Assembly: GCA_017648085.1 (NCBI GenBank)
Contig: JAGCJI010000108.1
Location: forward strand, 1 to 50,812
Direction: 5' to 3'
Length of the DNA stretch: 50,812 nucleotides
Source: Clostridia bacterium
GTDB lineage: Bacteria > Bacillota > Clostridia > Oscillospirales > CAG-272
Shown here: piece after piece, positions 23,716-30,705 of the stretch
Layout: every line of letters begins with the position of its first letter
Position numbering within the stretch: the stretch's first letter is position 1
Position numbers and translations under genes: made by a program
Notes under the pieces: generated by a model
Databases searched by the model: none
Told to the model about the DNA's origin: nothing
Seen by the model: the letters and a program-made list of their open reading frames with translations, nothing else

Positions 23716-24399
23716 ATGAAAAATGCAAAAATCGTGCTCGCGATCTTGCCGTTTCTCGTTTGCGCTTTGCTCTTCAGCGTGGGTTTTTCCACCTGGACGC
23801 TTGCCGTACCGAGTGAAGTTAGTGCCGAAACCTCTTTTTCAGTTTCGGTAGCTCCGATCTACAAGGCAGACGAATTTATTTCCGTAACTAAAATGGACAT
23901 GTTTAAGTATAGCTCGCTGCACTTCGTAGATTCAAACGGCGCGCCTTCGGACGTCGGCTCGTTGGTCGTCAGCTGTGAGGTCGATCTTGACGCCTGCCGT
24001 GAGGCACTCGGTTCAAAATGGAACGGTGCGTTGTCGGTGCGAATTGACCTGCTCTATTCAAACCTCTGCCTTGAGGATGGGGAGAGCTACAATCTGTTTC
24101 AGGAGATCAGCGGCGAGTATCAAAAGAGCATGGGCGCAAATCTCATAGTAGGTGATACCAAGACCGCCTGCTCGCTCACGAATGGCGGCAGCTACGTTTC
24201 CGTTACGGCAACAGTAAATCCCGGCACAGCCGCTACCGGTACTTATTCGTTCGGTCTTGAATTTGCCTTCAACGTGCCGATGAATAAGCCGAACACCGAA
24301 ATCCCGTCGAATTTCCGCCACGTATTCGGAAAATATCTTAAAAACAAGCCGAACGACAAGACCGACTTTATCGTAACGGCAAGAATAACAGAAATCTAA
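23716..24399 (+). CDS. small secreted protein P1 with SipW-type N-terminal motif (candidate fibre/matrix subunit)
   Basis: AGGAGG RBS. N-terminus ...LLFSVGFSTWTLAV. The C-terminal FGLEFAFN...PSNF resembles P2/P3. Confidence 0.6.
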   Translation: MKNAKIVLAILPFLVCALLFSVGFSTWTLAVPSEVSAETSFSVSVAPIYKADEFISVTKMDMFKYSSLHFVDSNGAPSDVGSLVVSCEVDLDACREALGSKWNGALSVRIDLLYSNLCLEDGESYNLFQEISGEYQKSMGANLIVGDTKTACSLTNGGSYVSVTATVNPGTAATGTYSFGLEFAFNVPMNKPNTEIPSNFRHVFGKYLKNKPNDKTDFIVTARITEI

Positions 24400-24464
24400 A
24401 ATAAGCCCGCGCAAAGCACCGGGTATTATCGGCAAGAGCCAAAATCTAACGAAAGGAGAGAGCC

Positions 24465-27400
24465 ATGACGAAGTTTGGAACTAAAATTGCAGTCTTACTT
24501 ATGTTTATAATTCTGTCGCTGTCACTTGTCGGCACTGCGTCGTGGATGATAATTCTCTCCTCGTCGCAGGACGTTGATTCTGCGGACGAATACAGCAACC
24601 CCTGCTTTACCTCCGAGGGCGTTTACAACGGCGACGAGCAGCTTCCCACTCTTAACGAGATTGGTATTGAGGTTTACGGCGAGGAGTTTATATCCGGCGC
24701 GGACTGCTCAATTACCTACGTACGCGGTGTAGACGCAATCGGAAATTCCTTTGCCGATTTCAGCGGCAACGAAAGCGTAGCCGTAGGAACTCACTACTAC
24801 AAAATAACGGATAACGTAACCGGACAGGTTATCTGTGAGGAGCATGCATACCGCATTACTCCCTCTCCCCTCATTATTAAGGATATAGCGATTACGGAGG
24901 GCACGAAGAGCGTGCTGTTCGTCGGCGATACTCTTTCGCTTGATATAACCGTTAATGTGCCGAAGGGTGCGACCAACTTTGACAAGGTGATAACCGTTAC
25001 CTATCCTATAACTACCTCGGATTATGCACCATCTAGCACGATGGCGTACGCGCCTACCGTTTTACTTGACGTGGAAGAGGCGGCGATGGAGGCAGGCTTT
25101 TCCTCCACCTACAACGTAGACGTATCCTTGCCTATAAGATGCGATCTTGACGGTATTGCGGTGATACTTCCTACGACGTATATCACCACGACCGCAAGCG
25201 CGACACCTCTCTATTACGGCACTCTTAACGATGCGCTTGATTTTGCGAGCACGCAGAATGCCGCAGGCACGAAGGTCGTGGCAATGCAGAGCTTTAATTA
25301 CGGAGAGGACGGTTATAGCTCTGCTACTCTTACAGCGGCTAACGATTATACGCATCAAATTACGAGAAATACAACCATTGCCACAAATGTAACTCTTGTC
25401 CTCCCCATTGATATAGACGGTGAAACTACGAACTATCGTGCCGATCCGACAGACCCTTATTATAAGCCTGCGAAAAAACCGAGCTGTGTAAACCTCGCAA
25501 CCTTGAATTCCGGTGTGAAGCTTACCGTGCAAGGCACTATAATCGTTGGCGGTATTGTCGGAACGCAAAACTCTGCTCATCCACAGGGTGTCACATCAAA
25601 TTCCTTTGCCGCGATAAATGCAAAATCGGGCAGCCTAATTGAGCTTGCCGATGGCGCGCTTCTCGATTGCTTTGGATACATATTTGATCCCGATTACGAT
25701 TCGGGGCTTCTGGGCGCAAAAATTAAGGCCGCATCCGGCTCTACAATAAAGATGCCATTCGTCGTTCACGACTACCACGGTGGAACTCACACGGTTGGTT
25801 GCTATCACCGTGCCGACGGAACCACAGACGATGCTATCTGTCCCTTTAACGTCTTTGATTTCCCGAATATTCACGCAACCCTCGTTTGCTCCTCCGGCTC
25901 TGGAATCAAGGGTTACGCGGACCTTTGGGCGGGCGATGAGCATAACTACGCTGAAACCGACGTTTTCGGTGACGCCAGCACAAATTCGTTCCTGACTCTT
26001 ACCAGTGGCAGTGCCACATTTAAGTATACTCCTGTTAAGGATACCGTTGACAACGACACCGGAGTAAGATATGTCAATTATCAGAGCTTTGAGCCAACCT
26101 ACGACGCGAAAACGCATATATCGCTTAACGGCAACGCTAAAACCGGCTCACTGTCCCTTACGGTTCAGGTTAATAAAACTATCTCAGGCATAAACGTTAA
26201 CGTTACAAAAACCGTGCAGCTTGCCGACGTAAGAATTCCTATTTCTCACAAGTTCCAAATAGAGCTTAACGGAAAACATACGTACCAGATAATGACAGAC
26301 TATAAGTTCCTTCCCGGCTCAATCCTTACGGTTAGAGAGAAGGCAAAATTGAAGATTGCATCTTCTGCATCCGCAATCTTCTATTCGGATGGAATTTACA
26401 AAACGAAATATACTGTACCCGCGACCGATTCGACTCCCGCAAAAGAGGTTTGGGCAGCGCAGGGCGCGAACATATGGGCAAAGGATAAAACCGCCCTTAC
26501 CTCTGATGGTGACGCCATAGTCGGCAGACCTCCCGCCTTGCTCACCGTTTACGGCGCACTTATTGTGGACGGTGCCATTTCGGGTGAGATATGTGCTGCG
26601 TCTGATCGCGCCGTTCTTGACCTTTCCGGTGCAAAGAGCCTATCCATCAGTTCCGTGGAAGGAAACGGAGACTATGAAATAAATTGGGGTGGTTTATTAG
26701 GCGCATTAGGCGGTGACTATTCTAAAGCGATAAACGGTGTAGTAACTGTGATTTACACCGAATCTTCGTCTGCGAAGGGAACCGTATCCGGTGTCGCAAA
26801 CGAAAGCTTTGAAAATAAGGTTTACGTGGGTGCAGCAACGTCGGCTACCTCTTACGGCTGGACTGTATCCGGAACCTACGCACTTTCCTATGAAAATATC
26901 GGCGCGGACGGATACACCGTAACGTTACCCAGCACAAACCCCACGACTTACCAGCCATCGGGCGATCCGATAAAACTCTCTGCTCCCACTGCTAACGGAC
27001 TCAAGTTCGCAGGTTGGTTTACCGACAGTGCTTGTTCGCCAGAAAGCCAGATAACCGTCCTTGACGGAGTAACGCTCTTTGCCGAAAACGGTGGTGAGGC
27101 AACGATTTATGCAAAGTGGGTAACAGAAACCTACACGATAAACTTCAACACTACTACAAATACGGGTAATATATCGAGCACGCCTAGCTACGACAGCATT
27201 CCTGTAGCAAGCGGAAGCAATTTTAATCCGTACACGAACACCGAGCTTGCGGACTTTACAGCTTTGCTCATAGAGACGTATAACTCCGATAGAACGATTA
27301 ACAGATACTTTGACGGTTGGTACACCTCTTCGAGCTTTAGCGAGGCAACCCGTATCGACGAAAATGACGGCATAACCGTCAGCGCAAATATAACTATTTA

Positions 27401-29701: not shown

Positions 29702-29712
29702 GGCGACGGATA

Positions 29713-30705
29713 ATGACCTCGTTTGAAATAATCGCCCTTATCGTTTCGGGCATCGGCGTGATCTGCTTCGCGGTGATCTTCACCATACTTTACAACTCCT
29801 ATGCCACCTCGGCAATAGGTGAGGTTGAAGCAGGTCAACGTGACGTCGAGCTGATAGAGGAAACGATTTACAGAAACGCGAAAAATGAAAAAAAGCTTCA
29901 CAGAGTATACAGCAAAACGAAGCAGGTGCTTTCAATAATTGCTATATGCCTTTTGTCGCTTTTCCTTGTGTTTTCGGTCATAAGCAAGATTCAGAACGGC
30001 GTCGTTATGATATTCGACCGCGGTGTTATTGCCGTGGCTACCGGCTCTATGAGCGAGCAACATAAGGATAACACCTATCTTAAAAGCGAAAAGCTTGATA
30101 ACCAATTCAACGCCTATGACGTAATTATGCTTGAAAGGGTGAAGGATGCCGCTGACGTCAAAAAATACGACGTTATATCCTACGTAAACGACAAGGGCAT
30201 CAACGTTATTCACCGCGTAATTGATTTTGAGTATACTGCAAACGGCGTCAGATACGTCACACGGGGTGATGCGAACAACGCCACTGACACCTATAAGCCC
30301 ACCTTTGGCGACGTAGTCGGCAGATACACTGGCGAGCGCATCGCGCTCGTTGGTCTTTTCGCGCTGTTTTTGCAGTCCTACTCCGGCATAGTTACCATTG
30401 CCGCGATCATTTACTGCCTTATTATGATCGATCGTGTCGGCGACAGAATAAACCGCGCGGAAAATGCACGCATTGAGATTCTTTCCTCTTCTATTGAATT
30501 CACGCGCGAGTGCGTTATAGAGGACGGCGAGGTTGAAAGCTCGTTCGTCGAAACCGTGCGATATAAAGACTTTTTATACGTTTTTGACGAAAACGGATTC
30601 GTCGAAAAGCGCGAGGCAGCTCCTGCTGCCGTCACCACCGAAAAGAATGGTGAGGTGAAGGCGGAGGAAAAGCCCGCGCAAGAAAAAAAGAGCGAAAATG
30701 AGTAG
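29713..30705 (+). CDS. sipW: signal peptidase I, archaeal/ER (SipW) type, with extra TM segments and a charged C-terminal tail
   Basis: ATGSMSEQ (Ser box), VIHRVIDF (His box), TRGDANN (compare SipW TKGDNN), DVVGRY. Hydrophobic segments flank it. Confidence 0.8.
   Translation: MTSFEIIALIVSGIGVICFAVIFTILYNSYATSAIGEVEAGQRDVELIEETIYRNAKNEKKLHRVYSKTKQVLSIIAICLLSLFLVFSVISKIQNGVVMIFDRGVIAVATGSMSEQHKDNTYLKSEKLDNQFNAYDVIMLERVKDAADVKKYDVISYVNDKGINVIHRVIDFEYTANGVRYVTRGDANNATDTYKPTFGDVVGRYTGERIALVGLFALFLQSYSGIVTIAAIIYCLIMIDRVGDRINRAENARIEILSSSIEFTRECVIEDGEVESSFVETVRYKDFLYVFDENGFVEKREAAPAAVTTEKNGEVKAEEKPAQEKKSENE

Follow-up and report, generated by a model that had tools for sequence, protein, structure and literature searches.

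Bacterial fibre operons that encode their own signal peptidase include tapA-sipW-tasA of Bacillus subtilis and sipW-calY of B. cereus, in which an ER/archaeal-type signal peptidase I (SPase I) is paired with a private set of substrates. [quoted passage not shown] The flexible N-terminus of mature TasA (residues 28–38) is the donor strand, and TapA shares only N-terminal residues with TasA (PMC9674648). SipW-dependent export also occurs in Clostridia: the C. perfringens operon sipW-bsaABCRSD encodes several secreted proteins, among them a polymerizing ~23-kDa subunit and a large accessory protein, together with a two-component system. BsaA disappears from the extracellular fraction upon sipW deletion (PMC7395162), and a disordered loop at its N-terminus inserts into the following subunit (10.1101/2024.11.04.621531). 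A further class, CoCoPALM, was named in 2024 and has never been characterized; its account is a single paragraph without subunits, motif, or mechanism, in which its authors suggested that it functions in the assembly of pili (PMC11090510).

We analyzed a window of 50,812 nucleotides from the 1.62-Mb genome of an uncultured gut Clostridia bacterium, in which four motif-bearing proteins (P1–P4) and an SPase I are encoded by five co-directional genes (23716–30705, ORF calls). Our best explanation, which we hold to be somewhat better than an even guess, is a dedicated-peptidase fibre system that would resemble TasA/TapA by analogy, with a new subunit family and CoCoPALM-type machinery. All features given below lie on the forward strand.

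Operon layout and signal peptidase

The ORF coordinates confirmed the five-gene arrangement described by a sequence-only reading of this locus. The operon boundary of that reading, at 30705, was wrong: P1–P4 and the peptidase make up the first half of a conserved operon of 11 genes and 16 kb, which continues to 39788 through six further strictly conserved genes (G6–G11), including a membrane McrBC-like GTPase pair. A candidate sigma-70-like promoter precedes P1 (23653–23681; TTGAAA-17-TATTAT, 10/12, a consensus match only), and we place the start of the cluster at P1 because the upstream context differs in the related locus L001 (ATP synthase). A strong bidirectional intrinsic terminator (39798–39824; 12-bp stem with 7 GC pairs, then a T-run) closes the operon. 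The sole sizeable intergenic gap holds a GC-rich hairpin without a T-run (28021–28046), read directly from the sequence, and an AT-rich stretch lies between this hairpin and P3.

The peptidase (29713–30705, 330 aa) is an ER/archaeal-type SPase I, as had been recognized from its catalytic boxes: it exceeded the cut-off of TIGR02228 (sigpep_I_arch; 67.2 vs 51.85 bits), and its best PDB relatives were SEC11A and SEC11C. The boxes GSMS (111–114), IHRV (166–169), and RGDANN (184–189) are intact, and those of Ser112 (nt 30046–30048), His167, and Asp186 were kept in 23/23 orthologs. Transmembrane (TM) segments at residues 6–24, 72–90, and 215–233 are followed by a ~95-aa cytoplasmic tail. The enzyme is no SipW ortholog (60 bits against the SipW equivalog NF046067, far under the cut-off of 190) and differs from SipW in three respects: one more TM segment at the N-terminus, ~17 aa inserted behind the Ser box, and a conserved cytoplasmic domain with a charged tail. 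Of these, the additional TM segment and the tail, already noticed in the sequence-only reading, are real and conserved among orthologs. The genome contains four SPase I genes. Since one of them is of the bacterial LepB type (127 bits), the operon peptidase is not the housekeeping enzyme, and most likely it is dedicated to P1–P4, which it would cleave.

The shared signal motif and its proteins

P1–P4 each have one N-terminal hydrophobic segment, terminating in VGFSTW, VGTASW, VGFASW, and TGFASW, respectively. When the loose pattern G[FTYLIVM][AS][STA]W was scanned over all 7808 ORFs of the genome, it matched 7 times, and only the matches in P1–P4, all neighbouring genes, follow a hydrophobic segment at residues 23–38. 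This confinement to four proteins of one operon far exceeds chance. The common G[FT][AS][ST]W at the end of the hydrophobic segment, first pointed out from the sequence, proved to be operon-confined and kept family-wide beside orthologous peptidases: all 24 related loci with enough sequence (24/24) carry 2–7 motif-bearing genes directly upstream of the peptidase ortholog. Among P4-type proteins, T-G-F-A-[AS]-W is almost invariant (164/166 representatives; G 100%, F 99%, A 99%, W 91%), and the hydrophobic segment itself is conserved as S-[IL]-A-L-[IV]-[SA]-T. Topology and the positive-inside rule predict an N-in helix with the motif at its outer end, on the same side as the peptidase catalytic domain. 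The −3/−1 rule was met by 100% of members only at G|F and G-F-A|[AS]-W; counting against our reading, the proposed cut would have W at +2 or +1 and F at −2, which SPase I sites do not usually show. The motif also differs from the G-T-x-A of tapA-sipW-tasA, and TIGR04088 (SipW-cognate signal), a model that the sequence-only reading had pointed to, did not match P1–P4.

P4 (28937–29701, 254 aa; GFASW at nt 29021–29035) is the prototype of a large family that is new, unannotated, and without known fold, comprising 1878 clusters at 50% identity (E ≤ 1e-3). Its layout consists of a conserved basic N-region, TGFASW, a flexible N-terminal extension, and a beta-sandwich plus helical body. In the N-region of P4-type proteins, LTRxSYKRK, the residues L3, T4, R5, Y8, R10, and K11 are nearly invariant (90% or more). 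The extension after the motif is conserved (with mature-form residue G17 nearly invariant) yet disordered in the AF2 monomer model (pLDDT 90, pTM 0.83; first 22 post-motif residues below 50), which parallels the donor strands of TasA and BsaA (PMC9674648; 10.1101/2024.11.04.621531). Fold searches of the model against PDB and BFVD gave no match (best Foldseek E 0.056, TM ≤ 0.2), and TasA was not among the hits listed. Non-significant fold matches included CanA and chaperone-usher pilins, besides a weak, non-significant likeness to carbohydrate-binding modules. P3 (28182–28919, 245 aa; GFASW at nt 28260–28274) is a paralog of P4 (29% identity, E 5e-15) with orthologs in most loci. Its ORF opens at 28149; the ATG at 28182 is the more likely start because of an AGAGAGG ribosome-binding site and of orthologs starting MKKTAKRF.

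P1 (23716–24399, 227 aa) has its hydrophobic segment at residues 6–24 and GFSTW at residues 23–27 (nt 23782–23796). It has ~46–55 N-terminal columns in common with the P3/P4 family, covering signal, motif, and N-terminal extension (hhalign probability 90–93%), whereas its body has no detectable relation to the P3/P4 bodies (0.15%). The earlier description of three paralogs with a common C-terminal signature was consequently not confirmed: only P3 and P4 are paralogs. The common N-terminal module on an otherwise distinct body parallels TapA vs TasA (PMC9674648), and P1, with orthologs in loci L001, L002, L004, and L005, is a candidate minor or initiator subunit. P2 (24465–28010, 1181 aa; GTASW at residues 23–27, nt 24531–24545) is a giant surface protein and an accessory adhesin candidate. 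Three C-terminal Flg_new/InlB-B-type (Listeria-Bacteroides) repeats were detected (PF09479 E 6e-12, TIGR02543 E 2e-11, three stretches each), while its similarity to the P family is limited to the motif; neither a PDB sequence match nor an LPXTG motif was found. Size and repeats agree with the giant adhesin previously proposed, but it is not a conserved part of the system: P2 is confined to closer relatives (L001–L005 and L033, Clostridia) and absent from Bacilli-type loci.

None of P1–P4 matched the TasA/camelysin family in Pfam (PF12389, named as a check by the sequence-only reading, gave nothing even at E ≤ 1) or in NCBIfam, and a 21-sequence subunit profile returned 0 matches at E ≤ 10 among PDB sequences, TasA included. 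This upholds the remark that the mature parts show no obvious resemblance to TasA or camelysin. Since Pfam, profile, and fold all lack such a relation, "TasA-like" describes an analogy and not membership.

Downstream genes and comparison with described systems

G6 (30762–32561) is a membrane-embedded McrB-like GTPase of the NxD type, with about five N-terminal TM segments, Walker A GLSGTGKS at 305, Walker B FFVLDEMN at 373, and GTANKDD at 434. Matches to AAA_5 (Pfam) and McrB (PDB) were weak; no locus lacked an ortholog (E as low as 1e-285). G7 (32564–33817) carries an McrC N-terminal domain (DUF2357; PF09823, 29.5 bits vs cut-off 23.3) and a C-terminal zinc ribbon (CPAC...CTSC), and is conserved in all loci. 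G8 and G9 (33827–36213), likewise present in all loci, encode an ABC ATPase (PF00005, E 2e-23) and a 530-aa polytopic permease without match in Pfam or PDB searches, whose complete orthologs all measure 525–537 aa (530 aa in most). G10 (36213–38660), an N-terminally anchored extracellular protein of 815 aa, shows the strongest conservation of any gene in the cluster (phmmer E down to 0 across loci), and Pfam and PDB searches with it were without match. G11 (38667–39788) is a lipoprotein with G-X-Y triplets and a Flg_new repeat (PF09479, E 1e-8); its translation contains an LSSCG lipobox and GEDGKDGEDGKDGVDGKDG.

The whole operon matches the CoCoPALM class (PMC11090510), with which it shares a TM-fused McrB-like GTPase with a shortened NxD signature (here GTANKDD), a DUF2357 McrC homolog, and signal-peptidase-family genes. 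Unlike in the published description, the ABC transporter, the 815-aa anchored protein, and the lipoprotein are fixed parts here, and the membrane part of G6 consists of a ~5-TM domain and a subsequent acidic linker and does not obviously resemble the FtsB-like combination of a single TM with a coiled coil. Contig C34 of the same genome holds a second, different cluster, in which a G6 paralog (39% identity) adjoins another SipW-like gene; by eye, this paralog is closer to the FtsB-like arrangement. The link between peptidase and McrBC-like genes is recurrent, as this second cluster and the published association (PMC11090510) indicate. By contrast, the six obligatory machinery genes, GTPase pair and ABC transporter included, are absent from tapA-sipW-tasA, and McrBC-like and ABC genes are absent from sipW-bsaABCRSD, whose BsaA and BsaB, unlike P3 and P4, are remote TasA homologs. 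Type IV pilin systems offer an analogy only: they too combine several paralogous subunits per locus, a conserved N-terminal module with variable bodies, a G-F dipeptide at the conserved site, and a dedicated peptidase, NTPase, and polytopic membrane proteins in one operon. They differ in using an aspartyl prepilin peptidase rather than a Ser/His SPase I and a PilB-like rather than McrB-like NTPase; here, the hydrophobic stretch precedes the motif and Glu5 is missing.

Proposed mechanism and alternatives

We propose that P1–P4 are exported via Sec as precursors with a short basic N-region and a 15–18-residue hydrophobic segment carrying [ST]-G-[FY]-[AS]-[ASG]-W at its outer end. The operon peptidase, with its catalytic domain on the outer membrane face, would recognize this motif and cut within or beside it, freeing mature proteins that start with a flexible, conserved extension of ~20 residues (W-[VI]-x-S ... 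G-N-[VI]-x-[VI]-G). These may assemble into a cell-surface fibre with the extension as donor strand. P4 and P3, of the same fold, would be the repeating subunits; P1 would be the initiator or adaptor, in a role comparable to that of TapA towards TasA, and P2 an optional adhesin. G6–G11 (GTPase, McrC-like partner, ABC transporter, anchored protein, lipoprotein) could form the membrane-side assembly machinery. Counting against a fibre, P1–P4 are unlike TasA, CalY, BsaA, and any solved pilin in sequence or fold.

The same genes could instead serve as a private export route for non-polymerizing surface proteins (binding proteins, adhesins, or enzymes, free or wall-associated), the paralogs reflecting diversification of ligand binding. 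The differing mature bodies of P1, P2, and P3/P4, the Flg_new repeats of P2 and G11, typical of surface adhesins, and the compact beta-sandwich of P4 with its faint resemblance to carbohydrate-binding modules are in line with this. We nevertheless regard it as unlikely: the 2–7 small paralogs of each locus share a conserved extension, disordered in the monomer model, for which a monomeric binding protein would have no obvious use, and the characterized private substrates of SipW-type peptidases (TasA, TapA, CalY, BsaA) are all fibre components (PMC9674648, PMC7395162). A little less probable still is that the hydrophobic segment acts as a signal-anchor that is not cleaved off, or as a pilin-like core helix, so that subunits stay in the membrane or are extracted by the GTPase/ABC proteins in the manner of type IV pilins, with GFAAW as a docking site and the peptidase releasing or trimming some of them. 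The sequence conservation of the cytoplasmic LTRxSYKRK, odd for a disposable signal peptide, suggests a function of the uncleaved P4 precursor in its own right and weighs against the mechanism proposed above; the conserved hydrophobic segment and the constant co-occurrence of an NTPase with polytopic membrane proteins, as in type IV filament systems, point the same way. Against an anchor stand the strictly conserved catalytic triad and the position of the motif exactly where an SPase I active site works, both candidate sites fitting the −3/−1 rule throughout; moreover, neither a prepilin peptidase nor a G|FxxxE class-III signal is present, and the hydrophobic stretch lies before the motif, not after it.

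Distant homology to tapA-sipW-tasA, with subunits as extremely diverged TasA/camelysin (Peptidase_M73) members, would account for the same logic of private ER-type peptidase, aromatic-containing cut-site motif, flexible N-terminal strand, and beta-sandwich body, and for CanA and chaperone-usher pilins among the fold matches. The empty PF12389 and profile searches, the insignificant Foldseek result, and the low SipW score of the peptidase make this very improbable. We give least credence to the McrBC-like genes being a restriction or defence module that neighbours a secretion operon by chance. McrB and McrC classically constitute a type IV restriction system, and DUF2357 occurs in defence contexts; yet every locus, from Clostridia to Bacilli, has the same order Pep-G6-G7-G8-G9-G10, a polytopic membrane domain replaces the DNA reader in G6, and the second TM-McrB-like gene of the genome again adjoins a SipW-like gene, an association published as a class (PMC11090510).

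The cluster has a patchy distribution and is rare: none of 400 genomes sampled from the phylum had it, and within the same genus it was present in 2 of 36, which makes it an accessory trait.

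Extent of the unit and its signal peptidase

Five ORFs lie in one direction with small gaps between them at 23716-30705 on the forward strand, in the order P1 (227 aa), P2 (1181 aa), P3, P4 (254 aa) and, ending at 30705, a signal peptidase (330 aa); neighbouring genes are in different reading frames. The P3 ORF opens at 28149, and its more likely start is ATG 28182 (245 aa), which has an AGAGAGG ribosome-binding site and agrees with the orthologs, whose sequences start MKKTAKRF. The sequence-only reading had bounded the unit at these five genes, which is too short: the unit opens with a promoter-like site (23653, + strand), continues through six further genes, G6-G11 (30762-39788, + strand), and closes with a strong terminator at 39798-39824. 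In a related locus of another genome (L001), the upstream neighbour of the cluster is an ATP synthase operon, and the cluster therefore starts at P1. The sole long intergenic gap of the operon (28011-28181) contains a 10-bp GC hairpin without a T-run (28021-28046), then a very AT-rich stretch before P3; the gap may act as an attenuator, as a processing site, or as an internal promoter that lifts P3/P4 expression. The G10 ORF (+ strand) opens at 36108, a 105-nt overlap with the end of the permease gene; the ATG at 36213 (815 aa) is favoured because of the orthologs and its MKKKNLV start. Just upstream of the unit, on the reverse strand (21374-23203), a divergent operon encodes a 609-aa lipoprotein with five Cys/Asp-rich repeats of ~28 aa (DxDGNGICDxC) followed by a metallophosphatase/5'-nucleotidase-like domain; this gene is not kept beside the cluster in L001.

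The last of the five genes had been read as an archaeal/ER-type signal peptidase I, with TIGR02228 as the check, and this identification is borne out. The protein scores 67.2 bits against a cut-off of 51.85 (68.7 bits in the genome scan) and contains the catalytic boxes G111-S112-M113-S114, I166-H167-R168-V169 and R184-G185-D186-A-N-N, with the Ser, His and Asp positions kept in 23/23 orthologs aligned from related loci. By both score and catalytic residues it is a member of TIGR02228 (Sec11/SipW type), and among PDB sequences only human SEC11A and SEC11C are related to it. Against the equivalog model for SipW proper (NF046067) it reaches 60.1 bits, far below the cut-off of 190, and it departs from SipW proper in having an additional TM segment at the N-terminus, an inserted stretch and a tail. 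The 23-ortholog alignment identified the extra TM helix (residues 6-24) as a conserved family-specific addition, as is a cytoplasmic loop, which contains the element G-x-R-D-x-E-L-I; the insertion of ~17 residues directly after the Ser box (SE..N.YL....NQF.xYD) is also conserved. The C-terminal TM helix (215-233) is canonical, and a conserved cytoplasmic stretch of ~60 residues leads into a charged low-complexity end, so that the extra TM segment and the charged tail described from sequence both hold. The genome also encodes a LepB-type signal peptidase I (TIGR02227, 127 bits) and two more archaeal-type enzymes on another contig, C34, so that the operon peptidase is not the housekeeping enzyme.

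Signal motif and putative subunit families

Each of P1-P4 has one N-terminal hydrophobic segment, ending in VGFSTW, VGTASW, VGFASW and TGFASW, respectively. In a scan of every ORF of 50 aa or longer in the 1.62-Mb assembly (7808 ORFs), the loose pattern G[FTYLIVM][AS][STA]W had seven matches, and only in the four operon proteins does the motif follow a hydrophobic stretch and fall at residues 23-38. The common motif noted initially is real and, within this genome, private to this operon.

A word-indexed search with P4 recovered 20 relatives, and an HMM built from their alignment, run exhaustively against 1.84 billion representatives, detected 1878 clusters (50% identity) at E ≤ 1e-3, of which 1297 reach E ≤ 1e-10. 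The family has no Pfam or NCBIfam assignment and no source name. Among its 166 top representatives, 164 share the N-terminus M-x-L-T-R-x-S-Y-K-R-K ... S-[IL]-A-L-[IV]-[SA]-T-G-F-A-[AST]-W-[VI]-[LMI]-S, with motif conservation of 100% for G, 99% for F, 99% for A, 91% for W (F in 7%) and 90% for S. A G-N-[VI]-x-[VI]-G-x-[VI]-[TS]-[DE] element lies 16 residues past the motif Gly and 12 past the Trp. The basic N-region is itself conserved in sequence (L3, T4, R5, Y8, R10 and K11, each at least 90%), something that signal peptides do not usually show. Only two places (cut marked by an arrow) obey the -3/-1 rule in every one of the 164 representatives and 82 motif-bearing ORFs, x-x-G↓F and G-F-A↓[AS]-W, the latter result being partly built into the search pattern. 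TIGR04088, the model for the SipW-cognate signal, matched neither the full-length proteins at E ≤ 1 nor their N-terminal fragments at E ≤ 10, and likewise missed the intended positive controls, proteins on C34 encoded beside SipW-like genes and with signals of the TLAWF type, so that this search may be underpowered. In several related loci of Bacilli type (L007, L010, L012, L013 and L015-L018), the gene just before the peptidase has a Phe-for-Trp motif (GAAAF, GLA[ST]F), and its product also has a long, very basic N-region. Four Bacilli peptidase orthologs (L013, L016-L018) have the Ser box GSR rather than GSM, and the joint occurrence of this box and the Phe-variant motif may represent enzyme-substrate co-variation.

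Beyond the signal, relationships among the four proteins diverge from the three paralogs proposed originally. P3 and P4 are paralogs (29% identity, E 5e-15), and this part of the proposal stands. Profile-profile comparison of the P1 family with the P3/P4 family gave an alignment over the first 46-55 columns only (probability 90-93%), which hold the hydrophobic segment with the motif and the extension behind it. Once these N-terminal columns were removed, hhalign probability fell to 0.15%, ruling out homology of the P1 body to P3/P4, and hmmsearch with P1-family bodies gave E-values of 0.03-0.25, with 1/5 at 9e-4 in a five-sequence database; a pairwise BLAST match (E 0.004 over 46 residues) is not upheld. 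The first 350 residues of P2 match the P family over only 18 residues around the motif, and homology beyond that stretch was rejected. The four proteins therefore have an N-terminal module in common and not one body: two are paralogs, and the other two carry unrelated bodies behind this module. P2 is, as described earlier, a large protein with three InlB B-type repeats, found as three Flg_new/List_Bact_rpt repeats in its C-terminal third; its comparison with PDB sequences gave nothing useful.

Fold of the putative subunits and known fibre pathways

AlphaFold2 modelled full-length P4 at pLDDT 77 from 21 sequences, and at pLDDT 90 (pTM 0.83) from a 70-sequence alignment of mature sequences drawn from the window, the related loci and the first search. 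In the prediction, about eight strands form a beta-sandwich body, which also has a helical sub-domain towards the C-terminus and ends in a conserved beta-strand. Past the motif Gly, the first 22 residues are conserved, yet have pLDDT <50 in the monomer. Foldseek returned nothing at E ≤ 1e-3 for either model against the PDB, with best E-values of 0.056 (pLDDT-90 model) and 0.028 (first model); all listed query-normalised TM-scores of the pLDDT-90 model were ≤0.2, and TasA was not listed. BFVD also gave no match at E ≤ 1e-3. HdaB, FimA, CanA, carbohydrate-binding modules (CBMs) and Ig domains were not used as fold relatives, their Foldseek matches being weak and not significant.

To our knowledge, only a few routes to surface fibres exist in monoderms, namely sortase pili, type IV pili and donor-strand fibres of the TasA/BsaA type. 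A TasA-like fibre system had been the initial reading, with the reservation that the mature parts do not evidently resemble TasA or camelysin, and it is the reservation that proved correct. PF12389 (TasA/camelysin, Peptidase_M73) had no match to P1, P3 or P4 at E ≤ 1, a profile of the P4-family alignment gave 0 matches to PDB sequences at E ≤ 10, and the fold searches recovered no relative. TasA, CalY and the archaeal AbpA are all in the PDB, so these comparisons put membership of the TasA/camelysin family to the test and rejected it. A sortase-assembled pilus is also rejected: the last 60 residues of P2-P4 are without an LPXTG-like motif, and P1, which lacks a C-terminal TM segment, has only NPGTA, at residue 168. 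Type IV pilins with a class III signal are contradicted by the position of the hydrophobic segment before GF, by the lack of a Glu at +5 and by the lack of a prepilin peptidase in the operon. Judged on sequence and predicted structure, the candidate substrates belong together as a large, new and unannotated family, whose signal motif is sharply defined and whose fold has no known relatives.

It is the logic of the TasA pathway, in which B. subtilis fibre proteins have a private signal peptidase, that the locus resembles. TapA has only N-terminal residues in common with TasA (PMC9674648), C. perfringens SipW is needed for export of BsaA (PMC7395162), and an N-terminal disordered loop of BsaA enters the next subunit (10.1101/2024.11.04.621531). 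Similarly, P1-P4 carry one N-terminal module on different bodies, and the P family has a conserved but monomer-disordered extension and an alternating hydrophobic G-N-V-x-V-G-x-V element. The extension lends indirect support to a donor-strand arrangement, in which the N-terminal strand of each subunit would complete the beta-sheet of its neighbour. From the fit of these features to the TasA/TapA/BsaA logic, we consider it probable that a dedicated peptidase acts on a cognate signal, and put the formation of a fibre by P-family products at about an even chance. What was noticed from sequence alone holds and has been extended, and the interpretation has partial support: it keeps its logic, and loses its family assignment, paralog number and boundaries.

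McrBC-like genes, proposed assembly and distribution

Distant family members were traced to their contigs and combined with a family scan (one genome per species), giving 24 loci whose sequence continues downstream beyond the P4-type gene. The peptidase ortholog is the next or next-but-one gene in 24/24, preceded by 2-7 motif-bearing genes, and the order peptidase-G6-G7-G8-G9-G10-G11 is identical in every locus extending far enough; G11 is present where the contig reaches and was not detected in some loci. Across related loci, conservation of all six downstream genes exceeds that of the subunits, and G6, G9 and G10 are far better conserved (E down to 0). G6 is a polytopic membrane protein (~5 TM segments) with an McrB-like domain containing Walker A (GLSGTGKS, 305), Walker B (FFVLDEMN, 373) and an NxD motif (GTANKDD, 434-440); it has weak matches to McrB in the PDB and to AAA_5, and its linker (170-260) is acidic and Ser-rich, with no coiled coil evident by eye. 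G7 combines DUF2357 (McrC N-terminal, PF09823; 29.5 bits, cut-off 23.3) with a zinc ribbon. G8 is an ABC ATPase, G9 a permease of ~530 aa, G10 an N-terminally anchored protein of ~820 aa across loci (815 aa in the window) and G11 a lipoprotein with G-X-Y triplets and a Flg_new repeat; for G9 and G10 we found no Pfam match and no useful PDB sequence match.

Bell, Makarova, Wolf and Koonin (eLife 2024) devoted one paragraph to a clade of NxD McrB-like GTPases, which they called CoCoPALM and left for treatment in a later paper (PMC11090510). We found neither such a follow-up in the literature nor CoCoPALM detail in the supplements of PMC11090510. G6 has the NxD signature of this class (GTANKDD, with Walker A and the Walker B DEMN), and it stands between the signal peptidase and an McrC homolog (DUF2357), the three genes adjoining in all loci. 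On this signature and gene neighbourhood, we assign the locus to the CoCoPALM type, with SipW logic. A second, different peptidase/McrBC-like cluster lies outside the window at ~12.9-26.3 kb of C34. Its two SipW-like peptidases are 263 aa (with a KE-rich tail) and 197 aa long. A 511-aa protein combines a TM segment, a putative coiled coil and an NxD McrB-like domain, and has 39% identity to G6 (E 1e-79). The cluster further encodes a GGDEF-EAL protein, a 926-aa protein, and proteins, some small and some large, with signals ending SFAWF, TLAWF and SVAWL. The association of peptidase and McrBC-like genes is therefore recurrent rather than a chance adjacency. The small signal-bearing proteins of C34 have no Pfam match, and homology between its TLAWF-type proteins and the P family was not detectable.

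In the mechanism that we propose, the basic N-region would lie in the cytoplasm and the hydrophobic helix would cross the membrane, placing the motif at the outer leaflet. The catalytic domain, which in a Sec11/SipW-type enzyme lies between TM2 and TM3, would sit there too. Cleavage would follow the motif Gly (G↓F) or the small residue two positions on (G-F-A↓[AS]-W). The N-region of P4, cytoplasmic and conserved, together with the likewise conserved cytoplasmic loop and tail of the peptidase, suggests contacts with the cytoplasmic GTPase/McrC pair; such contacts would make assembly active, unlike the passive assembly of TasA. The fullest version of this model, which we put forward tentatively and regard as rather doubtful, is an undescribed Gram-positive surface-filament machine. 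Its modular pilin-like subunits would place a conserved signal, GFAAW motif and N-terminal strand in front of interchangeable bodies of a new fold, and would be cut by a specialised Sec11-type peptidase and assembled or extruded by a McrBC-derived membrane GTPase and an ABC transporter, unrelated to the sortase, type IV, chaperone-usher, curli and passive TasA-type pathways. If an McrBC-type GTPase does take part in fibre assembly, a restriction-enzyme motor would have been recruited to envelope biogenesis. The P family provides candidate substrates for CoCoPALM systems; the 2024 paper that named these did not describe what they assemble. Its ~1,900 clusters at 50% identity are without a Pfam or NCBIfam model and without a solved or predicted structural relative, and the near-invariant T-G-F-A-A-W signal motif is a simple, specific search handle.

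Carriers of the cluster are all uncultured gut MAGs of small-genome Clostridia and Bacilli, assigned to Eubacteriales, Oscillospiraceae, Christensenellaceae, Pumilibacteraceae and small-genome Bacilli/'Mollicutes'. Clostridia-type loci encode a P1-like protein, a giant P2-like protein, P3 and P4, and Bacilli-type loci, which lack the giant protein, encode four to seven small paralogs. The distribution of the cluster is patchy, with occurrence in 0/400 genomes sampled across the phylum and in 2/36 other genomes of the same genus.
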